DNA of 64,000 bases, taken from NCBI GenBank assembly GCA_964016885.1, contig OZ024759.1, positions 22,258,001-22,322,000 on the forward strand, read 5' to 3'. Shown here piece by piece: positions 13,461 through 63,001 of this stretch (position 1 is its first letter; each line of letters starts with the position of its first letter). This DNA comes from Eledone cirrhosa (lineage: Eukaryota). Both the position numbers and the translations under genes were made by a program. Below the pieces are notes generated by a model that was not told where the DNA came from, searched no databases, and saw only the letters and a list, made by a program, of their open reading frames with translations.

Positions 13461-13595
13461 ATGAAGTCATTGTTCAAACAACATTGGGCAACTATTATAA
13501 GGAACCATATCTCACCGTTCCATAGTAATATGGGGCCTTGTCCATTGAATTGCTCAGGGCATGGCATTTGTGATGACGGCAAATGCCTTTGTTTG
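13461..13595 (+). CDS. Receptor-ligase coding exon 1 (start, EGF-like part)
   Basis: [45 protein letters not shown] then gtaagt. The exon begins at 13416 after poly-T/ttcag, so a non-coding exon probably lies upstream. Confidence 0.85.
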
Positions 13596-16336
13596 GTAAG
13601 TTCTTAAGTTCTACTTCTTGTTCATGTTGTTGTTGTTGTTGTTGTTGTTGTTCTTGTTCTTCTTCTTCTTCGTCCACTTATTCCTGGGAGGGTCGCTGGG
13701 GGCAGTGTCCTAAAGTACACCATCACTACCAATACCACCACCACCACCACCACCTCAACCACCGCCGCCACCACCTCAACCGCCGCCGCCACCACCACCA
13801 CCACCACCACCACCTCCTCAACCACCACCACCACCACCTCCTCAACCACCACCACCACCACCTCAACCACTGCCACCACCACCATCACCACCAACTCAAC
13901 CACCGCCGCCACCACCACCACCACCGCCGCCTCCTCAACCACCACCACCACCACCTCCTCAACCACCACCACCACCACCACCTCAACCACCACCACCACC
14001 ACCACCAACTCAACCACCGCCGCCACCACCACCACCACCACCACCACCACCTCCTCAACCACCACCACCACCACCACCTCCTCAACCACCACCACCACCA
14101 CCTCAACCACCACCACCACCACCACCTCAACCACTGCCACCACCACCACCACCACCAACTCAACCACCGCCGCCACCACCTCAACCACCGCCGCCACCAC
14201 CACCACCACCACCACCTCCTCAACCACCACCACCACCACCTCCTCAACCACCATCACCACCACCTCAACCACCACCACCACCAACTCAACCACCACCAAC
14301 TCAACCACCACCACCACCACCACTATTCAATTATTTAACAATAATTTTCCAGGTCCAGTTCCGTGGAGGCTCCTGTAAAGAAACCAACAAGGATTACTAT
14401 TTGGCTTTTGGTTCCATCTTTGTTGGTCTGGCAGTGGTCTGTTTGGTGCAGCTGGTAAGTATCATCATCATCATCATCAGTACCATTATCACCATCACCA
14501 TCATCGTCATCATTATCATCATCATTGTCACCGTTATCATTACCATCATCATTATCATCATCATCATTGTCATACTATCATCACCATCACCATCATCATC
14601 ATCTTGTTTTGATTGCAATGAAAGACAGGAGAGCATTGCTAAAATGTCAGTGATCATAGACAGGTGTTCTGGATATGGACCAGCCTAGAGTTAAACAACA
14701 ATAATACTACCAATAGCAACACTACCAACAACACCCTCACCTCTATCACCACCACCACCACCACCATCACCACTAACACTACCAACAACACCCTCACCTC
14801 TATCACCACCACCACCACCACCACCATCACCACTAACACTACCAACAACACCCTCACCTCTATCACCACCACCACCACCACCACCATCACCACTAACACT
14901 ACCAACAACACCCTCACCTCTATCACCACCACCACCACCACCACCACCATCACCACTAACACTACCAACAACACCCTCACCTCTATCACCACCACCACCA
15001 CCACCACCATCACCACTAACACTACCAACAACACCCTCACCTCTATCACCACCACCACCACCACCATCACCACTAACACTACCAACAACACCCTCACCTC
15101 TATCACCACCACCACCACCACCACCACCATCACCACTAACACTACCAACAACACCCTCACCTCTATCACCACCACCACCACCACCATCACCACTAACACT
15201 ACCAACAACACCCTCACCTCTATCACCACCACCACCACCACCACCATCACCACTAACACTACCAACAACACCCTCACCTCTATCACCACCACCACCATCA
15301 CCACTAACACTACCAACAACACCCTCACCTCTATCACCACCACCACTACCAACAACACCCTCACCTCTACCACCACCACCACCACCAAAACCACTAACAC
15401 TACCAACAACACCATCACCACCATCATTACCAGCAGCACCACTAAAAAACCACTACCACCGCAACCACCAGTAGCAGTAGCAACAGCACCACCATCACTA
15501 GCAACAACACCATCACCGCCATCAGCACCAATACCAACACCGCCACCACCACCTTAATCATACAGTGCTATTTCTCTATTACAGTGTGTCTGCATTTGGT
15601 CGCAGTACATCCGAGAGCAGAAACGATCATTGTGGAGTGCTTTTAAAATAACTACACAGAAGATGCTGTATGTTCTCACGCTGTGTGCCACAGCCATCAG
15701 AGCCATCTATTTCTTTACAAAGGTACGTAACTCTGTTTCTCCCTTTTAACCCTCTCATTAACTTATTTTTAAGCTGTAACTCCTCATTGAGTCCTGGCTG
15801 GAGGAAAAGGGAGGAAGGGCATATGCTGCTGTTTGGTGAACATTTTTCTGGTAGTAGAGCCCATCTCCTCTCCAGGTCTGAACACAGCCTATTTAATAAT
15901 TATAATATTATAATGAAAATTATTGTGTACAGTGCTCAGGTACACTACAACTCAACAAAGGTGCATGTATAGTACATAGAATAATGTACAAATGTCAGGA
16001 AAGTGAACAGTGATGAATCATGATATACACACAGATACATGCATGCATGTGTATGGAGGGGGAATATCTAATGTAGTGTCGTTCTATGTACTATACATGC
16101 ACCTTTGATGAGTTGAAGTGCCCCTGAGCACTGTACACAATAATTTTCATTATTATTATATATATATATCTATATATTTCTATCTCTCTCTATTGTTTGT
16201 CTAATTTAGTTCCAGTTCCAACTTCCAGACCAAATCTAACATTTCTATCTATATATATTTCTATCGCTCTCTATATAGTTGGTCTAATTTAGTGCCAGTT
16301 CCAACTTCCAGACTAAATCTAACATATCTATATCTA

Positions 16337-16396
<60 letters not shown>

Positions 16397-16873
16397 GAAG
16401 GGCATCCAGCCATAGAAAACCTGCCAGATAGTCCTATACAAGCGAGACATGGTCACCTGACCAATCTTGCCTCAAGTGGGACAACTCCCGTCTAACCCAT
16501 GCTAGCATAGAAGATAGACCTTAAACGATGATGATGATGATGATATCTATATATCTATATCTATTTTTTTTTTCTAGGGCGGGTAAAATTCCCGAGATCC
16601 ATGGACGAGTTCTCTCCAGCGGTCTCTGTCCCTCATTATCGCTGCCATGTCCTGCGTCTCCAACAGACCAGTGTCTGTCCTTAGGGCATCAACATACGTC
16701 AACCTTGTTCTTCCTCTTCCAGTGTGTCCATGTAGGGGCTCCCACAGAATCACCGAGTGCAATGTCAACTCTGGATGTCGGTGCACATGTCCAGCTAACC
16801 TCAGTCTCCTCTGTGTCACTTTTGCTCCCAAATACAGGAAGTCCTCAACCAATTCTAGCGGCTTCCCGCCTAC

Positions 16874-16912
<39 letters not shown>

Positions 16913-17169
16913 ATTTGCAACCACGCAGCACGCCATGTTTTCATATTTTTTATATATATATATATATATTTATCTCTCTTTATTGTTTGTCTAATTTAGT
17001 TCCAGTTCCAGCTTCCAGACCAAATGTTCTCAAACTTGTGGTGCGCTTATTACCCATTACTTCTCACAGGTTTCACCCTGATTGTTTGTTACTGGGCAGA
17101 GGTAGGTAACTGTTATGTATAAACATCACCATCTCCATCATCATCACCACCTCCATCATCATCATCACC

Positions 17170-17201
<32 letters not shown>

Positions 17202-20200
17202 CATCATCATCACCATTATATTTTGTATCATATTTTGGGGCTATTTCAGGCTTTTCACCTGTACAACCTTCCAGTTGAACAACCGAGGTTCCTCAGCAAA
17301 TCATTTGTTGGATTCATAGTATTCAATGTCTTCATATACATGTTGTTTGGTGCCAGGTTCTTCTTTACCGATATCATCAACAACCAGCAACAGGCAGTAA
17401 GTATTTCTCTGATAGACACACACATATACACACACACACATACATACACATATATACACACATATAGACACACATACAGACATATACACACACATGCAGA
17501 CATATACACACACATATACACACACATACACACACATACATACACATATACACACATATATATACACACATATACACTCACATATACACACACATACAGA
17601 CATATACACACACATATACACACATATACACACACATACAGACATATACACACACATAGACACACATATACACAGACATATGCAGACATACACACACATA
17701 TACACACACATATACAGACATATATACACACATATACAGACATATACACACACTGACACACATATACACACATATATATAGACATATACAGACACATATA
17801 CACACACATTTACACACATATATTCACATATACACACACACATATACACACACATACAGACACATATACATACATATACAGACACACATATACACACACT
17901 GACACATACATATACAAACACATTGACAAGGACATACATATATATACACTCACATATACACTCACTGACACACACTTACACACACATATACGCACATTGA
18001 CACATATTCTCACTCTTGTATACACACCAACACACATATAAACACATATACACATACATTCACTCACACATACACACCCACCTGGCCCCAGGGTGGTAAA
18101 CTTAAACTATTGCCTAATTTAACACCTCCACCTGGCCCCAGAGTGATCCTGGCCCCAGAGGGGTAGACTTAATCTATCACCTAATTTAATACCACCACCA
18201 CCTGGCCCCAGGGTGGTAAACTTAACCTATTGCCTAATTTAACACCTCCACCTGGCCCCAGAGTGGTCCTGGCCCCAGAGTGGTAGACTTAATCTATCAC
18301 CTAATTTAATACCACCACCACCTGGCCCCAGGGTGGTAAACTTAAACTATTGCCTAATTTAACACTTCCACCTGCCCCCTGGCCCCAGGGTGGTAGACTT
18401 AATCTGTCGCCTAATTTAATACCACCACATGGCCTGTTTTTGTTCAGTTTCTTACAAATGTTATATTTCCATTTACCACTTTTGCCATTTTTAATCATTA
18501 ATAATTAATTAATTAATTTTGGCAGGACATGATTAACAAGATCTTTGATGCATCTTTTGCATTTCTTATGTTCCTGGTTGTGGTTTTCTTCCTCATCTAC
18601 GGTGTTGAAGTATATTTCAAGGTTAGTGACATTTCCTTATACCTCCATTCAGTGGTTTTTAACCCTTTATCATTTACATTACTCTATATTTACTATTATA
18701 TTTTCACAGTAAAGGCTTTATCTTACATAATTACCTCACATAATATTTAATCTACAAGATTTTGATGTTATTTATTTTGAGAATGATACCTTAATGTAGA
18801 TATGAGCAGCCAGTTACAGTCGGTTTGAACAGAGAGAGGTGAGAGAATTCTGGCCGGATATGGCCGGTTCAAATGCTAAAGAGTTAAAAAAAACTTTTGT
18901 CCTTTCTTTGCTTTGTTGTTATATCTGTCGATCTGGAGATTGTAGTCTATCATTGTAGATCTATTGATCTGGTTATTGTAGTCTACTATTGTGTGATCTG
19001 TTGGTCTGGAGATTGCAGTCTACCATTGTAGATCTTGTGATCTGGTACTTACAATCCATCATTTATATCTGTTGATTTGGTGATTGCAGTCCATCATTCT
19101 AGATCTGTTGATCTGGAGATTGACAAGATCCCAGACCTCATTTGCTTACCAAGTAGGGTGGAACTCATCAAATTGGACCAAAGAAACGTTTCCATAGGTC
19201 TTTCCATTGCTGATACTATCTAATAGTCACAATGCCTGACAGAAAAAGCAACGTGAAATAAAGTGTCTTGCTTGAGGACATAACACAGCACCCAGTCTAG
19301 GAATCGAACTCACAACCTCCTGATTGTGAATCCAATTCTCTAAACACTAAGCCCTACACACCTTCACTAACAATTATTTTCTTGGGTTTTATTTTTTTCT
19401 TTTGTTCAGGTAAGAGGAGCATTTGCCCAATCAGAAAGCAATGTCAACCAACATCAGTTACATATGTCAAGGCTAGGATTAGTCATTCAGGCTCTTCTTC
19501 AGCTCATAACAGCTTTGTTTCTTTTGTCTGATGTCCTTAAAGAATTCTGGAGAGATAAGTAAGTAATTATTTCTATTTAACTATGCATGTCTGGGCTCTT
19601 GACTTAACTTTTGATGGATCCTTAGAGACGCTGTAGTGATATATGACACGTCTTGGGCATTTTAAACCTGACTGAATGTCTGAACACACCCAATTTCTTC
19701 TAGGGAAAGACAGTAAGGAAGGGAGAAATAGAGTAAAGCAGTGAGAAAGAGAGTGTATATATAAATCTATGTATATATGTGTGAATGCATATGTATGTGT
19801 GTCTACCTCAGTATACATCTATTTATGCATGTATGTGTGTATGTAAGTTCTTCTGGTTTTATAATTTTATAAATTTTTGCCAATAGAGAGAGTTGGTTTC
19901 TAACATAGATACAAGACTCTCTCATTGGAATTTAAACAACATCAACTAGGTATATATGTATGCGTGACTGCATGCATGCGTGTGTGTGCAAGTATGGATG
20001 TTATTGTATGTGTCGATGTGTACGTTTTGAGTTATATGTCTGCATGTGTGCTTTGTATCTGTTCATGTGTACATGCAGTTATTACATACAGAATATTTTT
20101 ACGCCTGTATATATGTACATATGCTGTTTTGAAGCATTTACTTCGTAAGTGGGACTCAAGTGCAATGCCTGCAAAAATTTAGCAAGAATTGAGGTGCAAT

Positions 20201-21046
20201 CTATGTGGCCGATTTCTTCAAACAAGAGCTGGTTTTGATAACCATCTGAAATCACAAGAGCTGGGGAGAAATCATGTCAACTGAGAGATGGTTCTACTGC
20301 CACACACTCCATGGTACATTTAATTTGCAAGTCAGTGGGTGGACTGACGAGACATGGTAAAATTAATGAAGACACGCCCCAGCTGGTTTTACCAGGAGAC
20401 AGACAGTTCAAGTGTTACATCTGTGAACGTATCTGCAAAACAAAAGCAAGTCTGAAAGCAAGTCGCCTGCATGCCCATTACCATGCACTGTTCAATGAAG
20501 AGATGGCACTCGTGTGACAAGAAGCAGCAATCAACAAGTATGTCTGAATACAACAAATTTCTCACCCAGAAAGATTGAGAGAATGAAAGGGTAAAAGATA
20601 TAGAGGAAGAAAATTATTATTGTTGCAGTTGTTTTCTTTGGTGCTATTTGTTTGCTTATTTATAATCATTTTTTAATTATTAATTTATTTATTTATTATT
20701 TTTATTGTTATGTATTTATTTATTTATTTATTTATTTAACAGACTTCCTGTCCTCAGTCAGAATGTTTATGATATTGGATTCAGAATCATTGAGTTTGGA
20801 GTTTCTCTTTGGTTTCCTTGCGTGCTCTGGAACTGTTGTAGGTAAATATTGTATTTATATATACACTAGACCACCCATGACCCGTTAGGTCACGTTCACT
20901 TCAAAATATTTTTAAAAAATGATGTTCACTTAAAAATAATTTTTAAATAATTAAAATATACACAGACATATAATGTGAAATGAAACTGGAAGGCCCATAT
21001 ATACACATGTGTATATGTATATATATAAATGTGTGTGTTTGTCTAC

Positions 21047-21100
<54 letters not shown>

Positions 21101-24100
21101 GTGGATGTCTGTGATCTATATACACTGGTCATAGACACACACATATACACACATATATATACACACACTCACATATATATATACATATATATATATATGT
21201 GAGTGTTATATATAACAACACCAGCTCTCTCTTTCTCTTTCATTCTCCTTCTCTGTCTCCTCTCCCTCTCTCTATGTCTTTCTTTCTCTCTCTCTCTCTC
21301 TTTATGAAGGTACCCGGCAAAACCCCATATCTCGGGAACCTATGGTCCGATTTACACGAAACTTGTTTTATTCCATTTGTATTCCCATTTCAGGGTCAAC
21401 TTCCTTTCAAAGTATTTTCCCATTATGCGCCCTTTTGGCTGTATTACATTACAGACAAGCAAGCAAGCAAGCAATCACAGACTTTTAGTATTATATAGAT
21501 TATATCATCATCATCATCATTATTTAACATCCATTTTCCACGCTAGCATGGGTAGGACGGGCTGTCCTTTGTGAGAGATCAGGTTTCGCTCACACAGAAC
21601 TGATTTTGGTTTGGTTTCTATGGCTGGAAGTTTTTCCTAACACTAACTACTTTTACTGTGTGGACTGAGTGCTTTTTGTCGTGACACCTACATGACCACT
21701 TTACAGTGTGGGTTGGGCACTTTTTGTCGTGACACCTACATGACCACTTTACAGTGTGGGTTGGGCACTTTTTGTCGTGACACCTACATGACCACTTTAC
21801 AGTGTGGGTTGGGCACTTTTTGTCGTGACACCTACATGACCACTTTACAGTGTGGGTTAGGCACTTTTTGTCGTGACACCTACATGACCACTTTACAGTG
21901 TGGGTTGGGCACTTTTTGTCGTGACACCTACATGACCACTTTACAGTGTGGTTTGGGCACCTTTTGTCGTGACACCTACATGACCACTTTACAATGTGGG
22001 TTGGGCATTTTTTGTCGTAACACCTACATGACCACTTTACAGTGTGACTTGCCCTCACTGATGCTGAAAAGAAGGTAGTATGGAAATGCCACTATGAAAG
22101 ATTACTGAATGAGGAGAATGCATAGAAAGAAAATAGTTTGCCCCATGTCGACCCAACACAGGGATTGGCTGTACAAATCAGCAGTAGTATAGTAAGTAAG
22201 ATAATGAAGGTATGAAGACAGACAAGGCAGATGGACCCTCAGGGATAGTTGCTGAGATGCTGAAAGCGTCAGGAATAGTAGGCAATACCATAGTCCCTTG
22301 CATTGTAAACCAAGTAATACAAAATGGTGTCATACCTAATGACTGGTGTAGCAGCATCATTGTCAACTGCTACAAGGGCAAAGGTGTTGCTCTAAATAGA
22401 GAAAACTATAGAGGCATTAAGTTGGTTGACCAGTTTATAAAGGTCACTGAAAGAATTACCGCACAGCTGATTAGGGAACGAGTTAACCTAGATGAGATAC
22501 AGTTTGAATTTGTTCCAGGTAAAAGTACCACAGGTGCCCTTTTCAGATGCAGTGTGCAGGCGAGGAGATTACATTGGTATAGATTTAACCCATTAGCATT
22601 TAAGCTTGCTGTATCTGGCCAGAATTCTCACACCTCTTTCTGGCCATAACTGGCCATTCATATTGACATTTAGGTATTGTTCTTAAAATAAATAACATCA
22701 TCAAAATCTCATAGATTCCAGATTATGTGAGATAAAGCCTTTATAATCATGACTCATACACTGTTCATTTTCCTGACACTTTATTATTCTATGTACTATA
22801 CATACACCTTTGATGAGTTGTAGTGCACCTGAGCACTGTACACAATAATTTCATTATATTATTATAATAGTAGCGTAATGTAAATGCTAAAGGTTTCAAT
22901 AAATATTATGGTTCAACAATATTAAAACTCTTATTAACCCTTTAGCTTTTAAACCAGCCAGTATTCTCTCACCTCTTTCTGTTCAAAATGGCCGTAACCA
23001 GCTGCTCATACATATGTTAAGCTTTTAAACCGGCCATATCCGGTCAGAATTCTTTCACCTCTTTCTGTTCAAACTGGCTGAAACCACTCATACCAATATT
23101 AAGGTATGGTTCTCAAAATAAATAATATAAAAATCTTGTAGATTCGATACTATGTGAGATAAAGCCTTTACCATGAAAATATAATAATAAATATAGAGTA
23201 ATGTAAATGCTAAAGGGTTAAATTATTGTTCAACATTAAAACTCGTATTAATGTTCACTGGGAGAGTCAAAATAAACATTATTTCAACAAATTATGAAAG
23301 TATGTCTATGATTAACAAATATTTTTTACCAACCATGTAGCAACAGGTTAACGACCTTTGAATAATAGTAATAATAATAACAAAGAGAAAAAGAAAAACT
23401 CAGATTACAATAATAATGATTTTTTTATTGAATAATTGTTTCTGCTTTTGGCACAAGGCCATCAATTATTCCAGTACGTTACTGGTACTTTATTTTATCG
23501 ACCCTGTAAGGATGAAAGACAAAGTTAACCTCAGCGGAATTTGAACTCAGACCGTAAAGGGATGCAACTCTATGCTGCAAAGCATAGTGTCTGACCCTCT
23601 ATCGATACTGCTAATCCACCACCACCACCACCACCAACACCAGTACTGTCAACACCAACACCGTCAACACCACTACCACCAACACCACTACCACCAACAC
23701 TAACACCACTGCTGCCAACATCACAACCATCACAACAACAACCACAATGACATCGTCAAAACAACCACAACACCACCACGACTAACAACAGCAGCAGCAG
23801 CACCACCACCACCACCACAACAACAACAATAACCACATTGCCACCACCACAATAATAATATTTGTTGTTGTTGTTGTTATTGCTATTAACAATATCATTG
23901 TTTTTACTGCTACTATTACTACTACTACTATAACAAGAACAGCAATAACAACTATTGCAACATCTACTACCACCACCACCACCACTACCAACACCACCAC
24001 CACTACCACAACAACAACTACACTGCCATCACCACAACACCATCATCATAACAACCACAACACCACTACCACCATTACCACCACCACCATCACCAGCAGC

Positions 24101-27100
24101 AGCTTCACCACACCACCACTGACAGTATCATCATCACTATCACCACCACTGCCGCCACCACCACCACAACAACAACAACCACTACCACCACCACAACCAC
24201 CATCACCAACACCACTACTACTACCACCACCACCACCACCACCACCAATACCACTGCAACAACAACCACCACCACCAATACCACCACCACCATCAACACT
24301 ATCACCACCACCACCATCATGTAATTACTTGAGATAATCAGCCTTATTAATATTTTAACTTTTCACATTCCGATGAACCTTATATTCCACTTTTGTTAAT
24401 GTTTTTGTCATTTTAATCTGGTGATAACAATGGAAGCTGCTTCACCCCACACCTTCCTTTACCCCCCCCCCCTGCCGTAACACACACATACACATATACA
24501 TTCACACACACACAAACATTCTCACACATTCACATACACATACACACATTTACACGCATACACACATTCACACACACACACACACACAAATACAAGTGAA
24601 ACTGCTTCTCCCTCCTCTCACTCTACACCTTACTTTATCCCCTCCCTGCCATAACACACACACATACATATTCACACATACATTCACACATGCACACATT
24701 CTCATACATTTACATACACACATACATCCCATAATACACACATACACACACACACACAACAGTTTTAAAAATTAAAAAAAAAGCCTAAAAAACATGTTAA
24801 ATATCTTATAACATTAATCTACTTTGCCAGGATTTAGTAACACAAACATAAGTGAAATCCTTACAGATATAATGTACCCTTCTCTCAATCAGCTGTGTAT
24901 TTCTCAACACAACCACTGTACCTAAAACAGGGTCTGATAAACCTGGAATTCCTACAAACAGCATGTACCCTCTTCTCAACCACCCTTGTATTTCTCAACA
25001 CAACCACTGTACTTGAAACGGTCTGATAAACCTGGAATTCCTACAAACAGCATGTACCCTCTTCTCAACCACCCTTGTATTTCTCAACACAACCACTGTA
25101 CTTGAAACGGTCTGATAAACCTGGAATTCCTACAAACAGCATGTACCCTCTTCTCAACCACCCTTGTATTTCTCAACACAACCACTGTACCTAAAACAGA
25201 GAATGACAGACCTAAAACCCTTACAGATATAAATGTACCCTCTTCTCAACCACCCCTTTATTTTTCAATACAACCACTGCGCCTAAAACAGAATGACAAA
25301 ACTGAATCCTACTGTGAGAAATTTAATATTTCTACCATTACACTCCTGTCGGTAAAGATTCATCAAGGATACTCTTAGGACATGAAACTTCAAGTAATGG
25401 ATTGCTAAACTGGATTATTACTTAACATTAAATCTTCACCGTACCCACATATGGACCAGTTTTTATATTAACTAGTTTTGCTTCAGTCACAGTGAGTGAG
25501 ACATTACAAAATATATAATTGTCTTTTGTTTTGTAATACTCCAAAATTGCTTCACTTCCACTACAACAAAAACAGCCACACATTCTACAATCTATACAAA
25601 AATTAACCCTTTCGCATTTAAACCAGCTGTATCCAGCCAGGATTATCTCACCTCTTTTTGTTCAAACTGGCCATAACTGGCCACTCATACTGATGTTAAG
25701 TTGTTCTCAAAATAAATAATATTAAAATCTCATATTATGTGAGATAATTATGTGATAATTACTGTGAAAATATAATAGTAAATATAATAGAATATATAGA
25801 GTAATGTACTTGCTGTATCCGGCCAGAATTATCTCATCTTTTTTGTTTGAACCAGCCGTAACTGGCCACTCATACTGATGTTAAGGTATTGTTCTCAAAA
25901 TTAATAATATCAAAATCTTATAGATTTGATATTATGTGAGGTAAAGCCTTTACCGTGAAAATACAATAGTAAATATAGAGTAATGTGAATGCTACAGGGT
26001 TAACTAGTTTTGTTTTAGTCACAGTGAGTGAGACATTACAAAATATATAAATGTCTTTTGCTATGTAATACTTCAGAATTGTGACATTCCCACTACAAAA
26101 ACAGCCACAATTTAGACATAATCATCATCATCGTTTTTTTTTTTTCGTTTCTTTTATGTTGGTTTTTCCACTCTTGCATGGGTTAGACAGATCCTTTTCA
26201 GCACAAACAACATCTCTTCACACGGTCATGTTCCTTCGTCATCTCCTCTGTGAGTCTCAGCAAGTTGAGATTAGTGCTCTTACCACCTCTGCCCAAGTCT
26301 TCTTTGGTCTACCTCTTCCATGGTTTCCTTCCACTGGAATTTCCTGGCACTTCTTCACCCAGTGATAATCTCACCATTCATGTTCATCACATGTCTGTTC
26401 TTCCAATACCGTTGCCGTAATATGTATTTTACTAAAATACCCCTCTCCGTTCTTTCTCTCTCTCTTTCCTTTTGGTTATTTTCCCTGTCAACTCTCATCA
26501 TCTCCACCACCATGCAGTCCTGAAGAATTATGGGTTTTAAATCCGAAAAAGATTTTCTTCTCATTTGATCGTGGTAAAAGTTTGCGAAGCAGATTAAAGA
26601 TTGATACCAAAGATCAGAAAGGCTCAGAAGCCTCTAGAAACCCCACTGGTAAGTAGTCTACTATACAATTATATAGAGTACTTAACCCCCCCCCCCCCCC
26701 CCAAAAGGGGGAGGGGAGAATTAATTATTTCTACTTTTGGCACAAAGCCAGCAATTACCCCAGTGCATTTGTGAAGGCATGTGGCTGAGTGGTTAGAGAA
26801 TTGAATTCATAATCATGAGGTTGTGAGTTCGATTCTCCGACTGGGCGATGTGTTATGTCCTTGGGCAAGACACTTTATTTCACGTTGCTCCTTCTACCTG
26901 GATTTGCGACCGATAGATAGTATTAACAATTGGAAAGACCAACGGTAACATTGTCTCTTCAGTCAGATTTGACGAAAGTCGATCAACTGTCGATTACTGG
27001 AAATAGGGTTGGGAGTGCTGAGGGTGTTATGTGGCCATGAAGGGGGGTGGTGGGTCCAAAAAGTTTGCAAACCTCTGCCCTAACCACTAAGCCATGTGCC

Positions 27101-27379
27101 TTCACTAGAAACCACCAAACTGATGATATAGTTATTTTGTTTGTTGATATTATATTACAGGAGTTGGTGATCAGAGTCTCCTGTGTTGGATTTGTTATGA
27201 CCCAGAGAATTTCAGCTGTGGACCTCTTATTCAGGCCTGTAAATGTAAAGGGGATATGTCTGCAGTACATCATGATTGTCTACGACATTGGTTAGTGGAG
27301 GTAAGTAAATCAGATATGTAGAAATATCTAATATATATATATGTGTATGTATATATATATATATAAATAAATATATATG

Positions 27380-27457
<78 letters not shown>

Positions 27458-30400
27458 AGTGTATGTATATATATACATAAAAACAAAACCTGTCAAAGGA
27501 CAAAGGAGCTCTTAAGAGTCAATGGCCATCCAAAATCACCGGGAGAGATGACCCCTTAGCCTTTGTCAAGGCAGAATTCTAGGAGAAGGAAAACTCTGAT
27601 ATAACACCTGCAACCCTGATGGTATCCAATGATGTTGACTTGTTCTTCTTTTTGGTAAATATCATCTTGGTTAAGAGAGTGGGACTGGCTCTGTGCAGTG
27701 CCTTTGTTCACTATAAACGCTTCACGGCACAGGCATTGCTTTATATCTGGAAATCTCTCTGCACTTGTCATCACATGGTACCATGAGCCCAGCACTATGT
27801 GTCAATAATTGTCACAAGTGTAGTGTTTGTACCAGAGTTTTCAAGTCGCTGGCTGGACTAAAAAGTCGGCGCATCGGTAGGGGTTCTCCTACATGGATAT
27901 AAAGTAGTGGCTGTACTCGAAAACGAGTTGGCAGCCACCATATATGTATGTATGTAAAAGGTAAACAGAAATAACAACACAATCACTACAGTATATGGAA
28001 GGAATATATTAGTTTAATGCTTGAAATAGCAGGAAGAGGGTCCTTAACATTTCAGATGCTAGTCCTTCTTCATAGAATGAGAAATTAGAAAGTAATATAT
28101 ATATATATGTATTTGCGTCTACATTGAAATACGTTCCCGTTCGTATTTCCATGTAGACGCAAATACGCTTATGTGAGAAAGTATATGTCTACGTACTATT
28201 ACGTATATGCGCATGGTTGAGTTTGTGTATGTTTATGTTCTGGATATTTATTTATATATTTTTTCCCCCTAATTCCTTTTTGTCCGTTTTTTCAGCCTTA
28301 CTTTCATATTTCCTAAATTTTGTTTTCAAATCCATATTTAATAAAAACACCATGTTATTTATTCATTCTGATGACTGAAGACAGACATAACATCTGCCTT
28401 CAAGAAACCACTAGTAAATGAAATAATTATCTTATGTTGTTTATTACATAACTAATAAGCTCTGTAGCCTACATAGAGCACTTTTTTTTCCTGTACCTTT
28501 CCGACGGAAATACTACATATATATGTATATATGTGTATATATATATATATAAGTATATATGTATCATCATCATCATCGATTTTATGTCTGTTTTTTATGC
28601 TTGCATGGGTTGGACAGGTCCTTCTCAGTACTTGTCTGTACACACACACGCACACATACACACATGCATATATATACATAAAGCTACTTAGAATAAAGCC
28701 TTCTTGAAAAGAATGGAATATTCCGAGAGGAATAAAGAACATAGAAGCAAGTACGTGATAGACTTAGCCATCTTTAGAATTGTTAGATAGATTTTATGAG
28801 TAAAGCCAACTGGCAGGATACTGAGAGGTCGTCCCTGAGCAAAATAGTTGGATAACATCTATGAGCTCAGTTAGTCTTGCTTGGGGACAGTTGCTTCTGA
28901 TAGGACCTGCAGGAAGGAATGCTTGAGGACTCTGCCCCAACGACCCTCCCAAGTATAAGTAAGCAAATAATAATAATAATATTGATGATAATAATATTAA
29001 TCATTTGTATAGCCATTGCTGCTGACACAGCAACAACAACAATAATAAAAATGGTTTCTACTTTAGGAAGAAGGCCAGCAATTTGAAGGGGGAGAGGAAA
29101 GTCGATTAAATCGACCCCAGTGTGTTACTGGTACTTTATTTTATCAACCCTGGAAGGATGAAAAGCAAAGCTAACCATAGCAGGATTTGAGCTCAGGGCG
29201 TAAAGGGCCATAACTCTATGTCATGAAACAAGTTGTCCGACGCTCTATAATAATCTAATAATAATCGTTTGTATTGTCATTGTTGCTGACACAACAACAA
29301 TAAGAAGAAGACTATTATTATATTGAATTCTTATAAAACTATTTCTATTTCTTTTATTTATCAGAGTGAATCTACGACAGCAAATGCGACTTGCAGAGTT
29401 TGCTTGGAAAAGGTGAGTTCTTCTTCTTTATCTCTTCATGTTCACCTCTTCAGATCTTTTCTTTTTTCTGGAGTATCGTCTGGTCTAGTCATGGTCTTGG
29501 TCTCTTCCCATCAGAGGCATAACTAGGGAAAATAGTGCCTATGGCATACAGTGAAATTGTGCCATCCTTTTGTCCTAGTGGTGACAGGGAAACAACCAAC
29601 AATATTGTTTCTGGGTTATTGTCCTTTGTAAAGATTGTGTATCTATCTTTTGTCACTCATGGCTGTTTGCTTGCAAATGAATCAAATATTATTAGTATTT
29701 GATATAAAACTCATGTATATTAGATTATTAAAAGACAAAGGAATAGCCCAATCTTATTTCTTTTGCAGTATTCCCTGGAAGAAAGTCATTACTGGCTGCC
29801 AAAAGGTACCAAAATCAAACACTGGATCCAAGTTTCCTTCGTTTTGATAGCGATGGTGGTTTGTCCATTTGGAACATATGCAATCTCACGCAAGATCGTG
29901 CCAACCTATGTACAGGCATTAGTTATTGGATTCACAGCTATATTTGAAATAATAAGCATGAAGTAAGTAATAATGATCTTCTTCTTCTTCTTTTTCACAT
30001 CCTCCTCCTTATTGTTGCCACCATCTCTATAAATGATATATATGTAAGTTGATAATATGTAAAAATAAACTCTGATGATGCCAATTTTCAGCCTATTCCC
30101 ATTGGCTGCAGTATAAAATCATAAGGAAATTTGGATAATTCTTTAGAAAAAAAATTTTTAAAAGAATTTTTAAAAGTATTTAAAAAGTTTTCCTAGTATA
30201 TTACAAACGCTGTGTATAATTTTAATCAGTTTTTCCGATGATTTGATTAGGCATACATTGTATTTAAAATTGAGAGACACAACTTCAAGTGATTAGCAAA
30301 TTTTAGACAACCTAATCAATGAAACAATTGTTAATACTGTAAATAAAACTCTTTTTGTACTGTTGACCATGTTATTCTTCACTCTTTCACTATTATTACT

Positions 30401-30864
30401 CCAAGATTAACCTGCATAGGAATTCCCAAGAACTCACAACCTAACTAAGGAAACCTCTTGTTGAGTCAAACAACGGCGTACGTTAAAACTATCCACAATA
30501 TGGAGTGTTCACAACCTATAACGATAATTTGTTATCCCATATATATATATATGAAATATAAAGACCTATAAATAATTGCAAAGTAACATTCCAATACCAT
30601 TGTTATTATATTTTTAACATTTACTGTCCATTTTACATTGTGGTAGCCTTCAAACAAAACATTATTTTCTTCTCTTTTTTTTTTGTTATTTTCAGGATTC
30701 TAGCAGTTAATGCTGTTAGCATGTACAAACGTGGAAGGCTTTCATCTGTTAATATAATCGGCAAACAAATACCGCCGGAAATTCCTTCAACTAGCACACA
30801 AAACATCGACAATGAAAACCTTTCCACAGCCAGTAATAACAAAACTGTTACTATTCCAATGTGA
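13461..30864 (+). CDS. Uncharacterised EGF-like + 7TM + RING-CH (MARCH-type) + 2TM membrane protein, 13 coding exons, about 549 aa (547/545 with alternative exon-4 acceptors)
   Basis: Exons 13461-13595, 14353-14454, 15585-15722, 17000-17101, 17250-17396, 18526-18621, 19410-19558, 20743-20841, 26518-26648, 27161-27300, 29365-29412, 29769-29962, 30696-30864. All introns are GT-AG with compatible phases; total 1650 nt, open from ATG (in-frame TAA upstream) to TGA. Confidence 0.9.
13720..14325. repeat. (CCA)n/CTCAA compound repeat (intron 1)
   Basis: Seen directly. Confidence 0.95.
14353..14454 (+). CDS. Receptor-ligase exon 2 (6th EGF Cys, TM1)
   Basis: ttccag|[34 protein letters not shown]|gtaagt. 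Confidence 0.9.
14700..15400. repeat. About 57-63-bp ACC-rich minisatellite (intron 2)
   Basis: actaacactaccaacaacaccctcacctctatc(acc)n units. Confidence 0.95.
15585..15722 (+). CDS. Receptor-ligase exon 3 (TM2)
   Basis: ttacag|[46 protein letters not shown]|gtacgt. Confidence 0.9.
16576..16875 (-). mobile_element. RTE-type LINE 3' fragment (inverted relative at 32090-32260)
   Basis: [11 protein letters not shown]...[12 protein letters not shown]...GRTRLTYVD...RDRWRELV. Confidence 0.75.
17000..17101 (+). CDS. Receptor-ligase exon 4 (TM3); start could be 17000, 17006 or 17012
   Basis: (FQFQ)[30 protein letters not shown]|gtaggt; three in-frame AGs 6 nt apart. Confidence 0.8.
17250..17396 (+). 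CDS. Receptor-ligase exon 5 (TM4)
   Basis: tttcag|[49 protein letters not shown]|gtaagt. Confidence 0.9.
18078..18432. repeat. About 120-bp higher-order tandem repeat
   Basis: ccacctggccccagggtggtaaacttaa...cctaatttaa subunits. Confidence 0.85.
18526..18621 (+). CDS. Receptor-ligase exon 6 (TM5)
   Basis: tggcag|[32 protein letters not shown]|gttagt. Confidence 0.9.
19410..19558 (+). CDS. Receptor-ligase exon 7 (TM6)
   Basis: gttcag|[49 protein letters not shown](K)|gtaagt, phase 2. Confidence 0.9.
20743..20841 (+). CDS. Receptor-ligase exon 8 (TM7)
   Basis: taacag|[32 protein letters not shown](S)|gtaaat. Confidence 0.9.
21660..22045. repeat. 48-bp minisatellite, about 8 units
   Basis: Unit tttttgtcgtgacacctacatgaccactttacagtgtgggttgggcac. 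Confidence 0.95.
22050..22575 (+). mobile_element. Decayed RTE LINE RT-region fragment
   Basis: [15 protein letters not shown]...[18 protein letters not shown]...NYRGIKL...[11 protein letters not shown]. Confidence 0.8.
24860..25310. repeat. 89-bp tandem repeat, about 5 units
   Basis: cctggaattcctacaaacagc recurs at 24942, 25031 and 25120. Confidence 0.9.
26518..26648 (+). CDS. Receptor-ligase exon 9 (cytosolic linker)
   Basis: atgcag|[43 protein letters not shown](G)|gtaagt. Confidence 0.85.
27161..27300 (+). CDS. Receptor-ligase exon 10 (RING-CH ligands 1-6)
   Basis: ttacag|[46 protein letters not shown]|gtaagt. Confidence 0.92.
27478..27945. repeat. About 470-bp dispersed repeat with an inverted copy at 32985-33460
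   Basis: Direct reverse-complement match by eye; the ORF track gives near-identical peptides on opposite strands. Confidence 0.9.
28362..28422 (+). ncRNA. Type I hammerhead motif, paralogue of the 35485 copy
   Basis: TTCATT-CTGATGA-stem II-GAAA-C cacta G-TA-AATGAA. Confidence 0.65.
29365..29412 (+). CDS. Receptor-ligase exon 11 (RING-CH ligands 7-8)
   Basis: tatcag|[16 protein letters not shown]|gtgagt. Confidence 0.9.
29769..29962 (+). CDS. Receptor-ligase exon 12 (TM8-TM9)
   Basis: ttgcag|[64 protein letters not shown](K)|gtaagt. Confidence 0.9.
30696..30864 (+). CDS. Receptor-ligase exon 13 (C-terminal tail, stop)
   Basis: tttcag|[55 protein letters not shown]. Confidence 0.88.

Positions 30865-39006: not shown

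Positions 39007-63001
<23,995 letters not shown>

Follow-up and report, generated by a model that had tools for sequence, protein, structure and literature searches.

The window analysed here is a 64,000-nucleotide stretch of the genome of the octopus Eledone cirrhosa (NCBI GenBank assembly GCA_964016885.1, contig OZ024759.1, positions 22,258,001 to 22,322,000 of the forward strand), and all positions below are counted from its first nucleotide. Thirteen exons on the + strand between 13461 and 30864 were spliced into one open frame of 549 codons plus stop (1,650 bases), which begins with the ATG at 13461 and is closed by a TGA ending at 30864; all 12 introns were of the GT-AG type. The gene encodes one protein, in which an EGF-like module, seven transmembrane (TM) helices, a C4HC3 RING-CH finger and two further helices follow one another. 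An initial annotation made from the sequence alone had given the same start, end and exon number, and the motifs it named were located on the + strand at 13539, 14356, 27184, 27268 and 29392. The exons, with the amino acids (aa) they encode, are as follows.

13461 to 13595, + strand: exon 1, coding part (aa 1-45); a short N-terminus that lacks a signal peptide, the first five EGF-like cysteines and the sequon N30
14353 to 14454, + strand: exon 2 (aa 46-79); sixth EGF Cys (C53) and most of TM1
15585 to 15722, + strand: exon 3 (aa 80-125); the basic first cytosolic loop, then TM2, in which R118 and Y121 are conserved
17000 to 17101, + strand: exon 4 (aa 126-159); TM3, with conserved C155, W157 and E159 at its end
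17250 to 17396, + strand: exon 5 (aa 160-208); cytosolic loop 2 and TM4
18526 to 18621, + strand: exon 6 (aa 209-240); TM5
19410 to 19558, + strand: exon 7 (aa 241-290); cytosolic loop 3 and TM6
20743 to 20841, + strand: exon 8 (aa 290-323); TM7, in which R304, E307, W313 and W319 are conserved; the intron after it is the longest (5,676 bp)
26518 to 26648, + strand: exon 9 (aa 323-367); the motif L327-P332, which is conserved, and after it a variable cytosolic linker
27161 to 27300, + strand: exon 10 (aa 367-413); zinc ligands 1-6 (C375, C378, C393, C395, H403, C406) and W410
29365 to 29412, + strand: exon 11 (aa 414-429); zinc ligands 7-8 (C423, C426)
29769 to 29962, + strand: exon 12 (aa 430-494); TM8 and most of TM9, a MARCH/K3-like hairpin
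30696 to 30864, + strand: exon 13 (aa 494-549 and stop); last part of TM9, a basic stretch and a variable tail

The model was built from the genome sequence and an orthologue alignment, and its strong test was orthology. A search with the RING exon returned two full-length proteins, from Octopus bimaculoides and Argonauta hians. The spliced model was identical to the O. bimaculoides RefSeq protein XP_014777319.1 at 483 of 547 aligned residues (88%), and the alignment was gap-free over aa 1-519, which spans all 12 junctions, with a per-exon identity of 73-98%; the A. hians protein was identical at 448 of 545 aligned positions. A 549-aa member of the same cluster, identical to the model at 484 of 547 residues, was found on a 1,876-base contig. 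We infer that this contig is a spliced transcript of a related octopod; it is too short to hold introns and thus supports a single-gene model. In the 3.0-Gb Eledone genome, the RING exon (exon 10) and the seven-helix exon (exon 7) each had at least one match. None of 20,000 random AG-started block sets of equal lengths was stop-free, a weak test because the exons had been picked by hand.

The longest intron separates the seven-helix half from the RING half, and two neighbouring genes wrongly joined over these 5.7 kb would leave such a boundary. Against this stand the gap-free orthologue, the 88% identical member on a contig of intron-less size, the presence of both EGF and RING patterns in 111 of 123 fetched proteins, and protist transcriptome open reading frames with an identical domain order. 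An artefact of this kind is extremely improbable for the Eledone gene and is excluded for the family as a whole, and the earlier view of one gene rather than two was borne out.

Several details of the splicing were recorded. The frame stays open with each of three exon 4 acceptors (17000, 17006 and 17012), and acceptor 17000 makes the exon gap-free against the orthologue; a further acceptor at 17070 broke the frame and was rejected. The three in-frame AG acceptors lie 6 bases apart, and short alternative forms of luminal loop 1 are possible. Two decoy acceptors in intron 3 (16191-16240 and 16274-16323, + strand) are short copies of the exon 4 acceptor and its first codons, identical to the exon 4 start at 45/50 and 41/50 bases, and each runs into a stop within 10 codons. 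In the longest intron, an 89-bp tandem repeat of 4.7 copies was found at 24872-25291; a candidate exon at 24831, inside this repeat, was closed by stops and rejected. Intron 9 contains very high-copy repeats (26688-27135), with a summed contig depth near a million in the sequencing runs examined. Contigs of three runs continued from exon 9 into the next intron with no splice joint and were uninformative on expression. Downstream on the same strand, an exon of the U5 small nuclear ribonucleoprotein (snRNP) 200 kDa helicase (Brr2/SNRNP200) was found at 51397-51615 (E 1.9e-14 to the human chain), which makes Brr2/SNRNP200 the next gene. Short open frames at 22200-22649 (+), 46314-46919 (-) and 16574-16969 (-) presumably resemble reverse-transcriptase fragments of long interspersed nuclear elements.

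The C4HC3 RING-CH finger claimed by the initial annotation was recovered at the level of both exon and orthologue. Exon 10 matched RINGv (PF12906) at E 1.3e-11 (44.9 bits vs a cut-off of 21.6), and RINGv was present in 77 of 78 orthologues. In a set of 104 orthologues the eight zinc ligands were conserved in 103-104, W410 and L407 in all, and I377 in 95; we take I377, L407 and W410 to be positions facing the ubiquitin-conjugating enzyme (E2) in K3 and MARCH. The only PDB sequence matches of the RING exon were the RINGs of K3, Doa10 and MARCH8 (4/4). About 22-26 residues separate the RING from the two-helix hairpin. The model of the orthologue from the protist Diphylleia rotans matched viral K3/MARCH-like proteins with RING and TM segments over 155-237 columns and, separately, viral G-protein-coupled receptors (GPCRs), weakly in both cases (E at least 1.8e-3).

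The two-TM MARCH ligases (MARCH1-4, 8, 9, 11) and viral K3/K5 (MIR1/MIR2) share this C4HC3 RING-CH followed by a two-helix hairpin, and automatic annotation labels some members of the octopus family MIR1, MIR2 or MARCH5 from these two elements. In MARCH ligases the RING belongs to the cytosolic N-terminal part, before the first TM helix, whereas the octopus RING is internal, preceded by the EGF module and a seven-helix domain. Among 55 members, C-terminal class II PDZ tails were not enriched (3 vs 3.8 by shuffle); class I tails (7 vs 3.1) were unconvincing, and PDZ-tail enrichment was rejected as a shared feature.

Hydropathy gave seven peaks ahead of the RING and two after it. An AlphaFold2 prediction from 78 sequences (mean predicted local distance difference test score, pLDDT, 75.8; predicted template modelling score, pTM, 0.62) placed seven long helices at 58-318 and two more at 445-470 and 475-511, and the Diphylleia model repeated the 7+2 layout with a better RING (pLDDT 80.6, pTM 0.70), in agreement with the helix count first proposed. 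When the octopus model was compared by VIA-align, GPR6 was matched at Z 18.8 (root-mean-square deviation 3.5 A, 245 residues), against about Z 13 for generic helical bundles by the tool's own note; all 50 listed rows were receptors or designed GPCR-like folds, and no receptor class stood out. All 49 rows listed by Foldseek were GPCRs or GPR155. The seven-helix bundle is thus predicted to take the GPCR fold.

By sequence family, the bundle is nearest to the THH1/TOM1-GPR137 type, as had been suggested, rather than to class A. THH1/TOM1 (PF06454) was found in 25 of 78 members at E<=0.01 and above its cut-off in four of eight chosen members (Diphylleia, Rigifila, Ischnura and Porites), most strongly in the two protists (Diphylleia 47.6 and Rigifila 42.1 bits vs 25). 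Of the 11 exons scanned against Pfam, the 9 other than exons 1 and 10 had no match of any kind. ESM features of the domain lay nearest PRRT3, THH1/TOM1 and GPR137_N clusters at 0.82, which is a lead only. Class A hallmarks were nearly absent from the 104 orthologues: a DRY-like motif in one, NPxxY in none and the TM3-loop 2 Cys pair in none. In the luminal half, five polar residues were near-invariant (R118 in 99, Y121 in 97, Y143 in 97, R304 in 94 and E307 in 102 of 104). GPR137, THH1-TOM1-TOM3 and PRRT3 appear to share the sequence family and fold of the domain and likewise lack class A motifs. GPR137 is described as lysosomal (PMC12716839, PMC7429791) and as a stand-alone seven-TM protein with no domain outside it (PMC12716839), whereas the octopus family adds the EGF module, RING-CH and two helices.

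A true GPCR whose RING ubiquitinates only the receptor itself or its G protein, as a built-in desensitisation, would also have the predicted fold. The strong conservation of the cytosolic face, to which the ends of TM3, TM5 and TM7 belong, agrees with such a receptor, and an EGF-like domain beside TM1 occurs in mGlyR/GPR179 receptors too, according to PMC12716839. We consider it quite unlikely, given the missing class A motifs, the additional TM8-9 hairpin, which suggests clients in trans, and the nearest family, whose member GPR137B is described in PMC7429791 as GPCR-like and binding Rag GTPases.

At the N-terminus, exon 1 matched EGF-type families at or just below their cut-offs (PF23106, E 3.6e-5, 24.2 bits vs 24.3), and one orthologue, P0001, exceeded the same cut-off with 26.6 bits. 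In a Pfam scan of an orthologue, residues 27-55 matched a teneurin-type EGF and residues 375-426 matched RINGv; matches to reelin EGFs were also obtained. The six EGF cysteines were conserved in at least 90% of 78 members, and an N-C-S/T sequon, which EGFs of teneurin type often carry, lay within the EGF in 69 of the 78. The spacing from EGF to TM1 was identical in 100 of 101, and this fixed distance suggests a rigid cap. Mean counts of lysine plus arginine (K+R) were 2.4-4.4 in the six predicted cytosolic segments and 0.3-0.9 in three of the four luminal loops, so that 9 of 10 hand-set segments agreed with the positive-inside pattern. A GPCR fold implies an outside N-terminus and hence a cytosolic RING. 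Together with the charge pattern, the model therefore points to the N-out topology initially proposed, with the EGF module predicted to be luminal or outside the cell, where it would cap TM1 in a fixed position, and the RING predicted to be cytosolic.

Sorting signals were counted by textbook patterns in the linker between TM7 and the RING of 55 orthologues under 60% identity, with 2,000 shuffles. The acidic dileucine [DE]xxxL[LI] was present in 12 linkers (shuffle mean 1.9) and YxxPhi in 19 (shuffle mean 5.4), and for each, 0/2000 shuffles reached as high, the homologues not being independent of one another. At 50% identity the counts were 12/40 vs 1.6 and 13/40 vs 4.0, respectively. The enrichment extended across sponges, cnidarians, molluscs, chelicerates and amphioxus; no sorting pattern was found in the Argonauta linker.

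This distribution bears on a possible role in the endoplasmic reticulum (ER) or Golgi. Multi-pass ligases that combine a sensor with a RING exist in these compartments, and the octopus protein could, like Doa10/MARCH6, Tul1/Dsc1 or RNF145, serve as a ligase for quality control or lipid sensing, its bundle reading the membrane state or misfolded TM segments and its clients going to the proteasome. Its RING matches that of Doa10 in addition to those of K3 and MARCH8, conservation lies within the bilayer and on the cytosolic side, and the Eledone protein and both protists are without endolysosomal motifs. The enrichment of sorting motifs from sponges through amphioxus speaks for another route, as do the C-terminal half, which is of the two-helix MARCH/K3 type and not the Doa10 multi-helix type, and the lysosomal location given for GPR137 relatives in PMC12716839. 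An ER or Golgi ligase is therefore unlikely.

On balance, we lean towards a MARCH-like membrane ubiquitin ligase (E3) that acts in the endosome-lysosome route and whose clients are selected or gated by its GPCR-fold half. By analogy with MARCH and K3/K5, the RING would bind E2 charged with ubiquitin, the TM8-9 hairpin would contact client membrane proteins within the bilayer, and the tagged clients would be endocytosed and degraded in lysosomes. The weakest step concerns the bundle: a domain of THH1/TOM1-GPR137 type may read a luminal or membrane cue or bind a partner, and might in this way determine the timing and the targets of tagging by the RING, with no classical coupling to G proteins. 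Sensing would then be coupled to ubiquitination.

Several results weigh against the endolysosomal ligase. The Eledone protein has no sorting motif of either kind in its linker or tail, and even relaxed patterns, chosen after the linkers had been inspected, were absent in 20 of 55 orthologues, including both named protists. The octopus protein had no PF06454 match in the Pfam scan, and Foldseek against the PDB gave no match at E<=0.001 (best E 1.6e-3, probability 1.00). In the octopus prediction, pLDDT was under 50 at 355-381, 386-392 and 398-401, leaving the linker and much of the RING at low confidence. Conservation within TM1-7 was higher in the cytosolic halves (0.72) than in the luminal halves (0.58; p about 1e-4, the columns not being independent), and a less conserved luminal half fits a scaffold as well as a receptor. 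No signal-peptide-like stretch was found in any of 45 members, with a median of 24 residues ahead of the EGF, so the module must be moved across the membrane in the absence of such a signal. Luminal loop 3, with a K+R of 2.8, is basic, contrary to the positive-inside pattern. Octopods have Ala at 392, where Pro is present in 99 of 104 orthologues, and the position that follows the last RING Cys is variable (K in 34, N in 31, G in 22, L in 6). From what is known of the RING mechanism, these two features may mean weak activity.

A weak or catalytically inactive RING would make the protein a scaffold and trafficking adaptor, and scaffold-only RING membrane proteins such as ZFPL1 exist, as PMC4021871 describes. 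ZFPL1, by contrast, has lost a zinc ligand. In the octopus family the ligands are observed to be intact and, like I377, L407 and W410, are near-invariant from protists to octopus, which makes an inactive scaffold very unlikely.

Uncharacterised invertebrate homologues had been anticipated, and many were listed; the range extends further, to protists that are not animals. A search with the seven-TM region found 334 proteins. Among the 120 listed, those named came from molluscs, arthropods, a priapulid, amphioxus, hemichordates and cnidarians, nearly all "uncharacterized" or automatically named. When 1.84 billion representatives were searched with a profile, 165 reached E<=1e-30, of which 150 were listed; 20 representatives were looked up, and the 11 with an organism were from four sponges, an octocoral, a sea star, a nemertean, a springtail, a mite and two protists. 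The protist members, from Diphylleia rotans and Rigifila ramosa, which we take to belong to CRuMs, have the order EGF-7TM-RING-CH-2TM. Full-length members were observed in sponges, cnidarians, protostomes, amphioxus, Diphylleia and Rigifila.

A quick IQ-TREE tree of 41 rows (the thorough search was unfinished) agrees for the most part with the species phylogeny; in it, both protists and an unnamed row branch outside every named animal (SH-like approximate likelihood ratio test, SH-aLRT, 98), a grouping to be read with the long-branch warning the tree carries. The Diphylleia sequence is 24-35% identical to every other aligned sequence, which speaks against contamination by any of the animals sampled. 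The data indicate that the family predates animals and that the fusion has been kept vertically from CRuMs protists to amphioxus. The divergent full-length member P0218 (609 aa), which shares a long branch with the two protists, may be a further non-animal lineage. Three ESM Atlas clusters scoring above 0.9 were mostly arthropod. At ranks 5 and 7 stood a ciliate and a haptophyte cluster (0.75-0.77), with EGF_2 in 17% of one's members; these are possibly EGF-7TM relatives without RING, a lead only.

To our knowledge, no human RING-CH protein has the layout EGF-7TM-RING-CH-2TM. In line with the initial annotation, which recognised no vertebrate gene of this architecture, no vertebrate was named among the 120 listed of 334 matches or the representatives looked up; with 214 of the 334 outside those listed, loss in vertebrates is likely rather than established. 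The 11 human RING-CH proteins are all MARCH, according to PMC4021871. No Drosophila or nematode orthologue was identified in the searches, the last of which gave 12 matches from 8,000 scored candidates, among them a partial midge member. Two fly genes were rejected: CG13442/dMARCH8, described as a two-TM MARCH in 10.1101/112243, and CG10761, for which the literature search gave only methylation-probe matches.

Other ligases offer comparisons. Tul1/Dsc1, RNF145, RNF139/TRC8 and Doa10/MARCH6 likewise combine, in a single chain, a multi-pass membrane domain with a RING, which means that membrane sensing can control ubiquitination. In Tul1, RNF145 and TRC8 the RING is C-terminal and of the RING-H2 type, and that of Doa10 is N-terminal and precedes many helices; we know of none among them with EGF-7TM-RING-CH-2TM. 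PA-TM-RING ligases (RNF43/ZNRF3, GRAIL) also wire a luminal recognition module to a cytosolic RING (PMC4021871), but they are single-pass and of the RING-H2 type. GPCR-enzyme fusions (GPCR-PIPK, GPCR-TKL/K) join seven TM helices to a catalytic output, as PMC12716839 describes, but the enzymes are kinases, not a ligase. No description of the octopus architecture was found in the literature searched, in which subscription journals were thinly covered and supplements lay outside (the GPCR catalogues of PMC12716839 could list members). The fusion is ancient, real and apparently undescribed; both halves are of known kinds, and the domains are already visible in database annotations. A characterised fly or worm orthologue is possible.

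A broader proposal, possible but somewhat doubtful, is a pre-animal receptor class with ubiquitin rather than a G protein as its output: a ligand, proton or lipid in the polar site (R118, Y121, Y143, R304 and E307) under the EGF cap would move the GPCR-fold bundle and switch on the RING-CH, and a single gene would have carried this from CRuMs to amphioxus, with apparent loss in vertebrates. Two-TM MARCH ligases are controlled mostly through expression and self-turnover. If the proposed mechanism is true, a MARCH that carries a GPCR-fold module of its own would link a luminal or membrane signal directly to the down-regulation of receptors. The family would also provide an entry point to the orphan GPR137/TOM1/PRRT3 fold, since the likely output, ubiquitination, lies on the same chain and is easily assayed. 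Orthologues are present in tractable animals, including insects, Daphnia, sea anemones and amphioxus. If vertebrate loss holds, the family would represent a lost branch of the membrane ubiquitin system.

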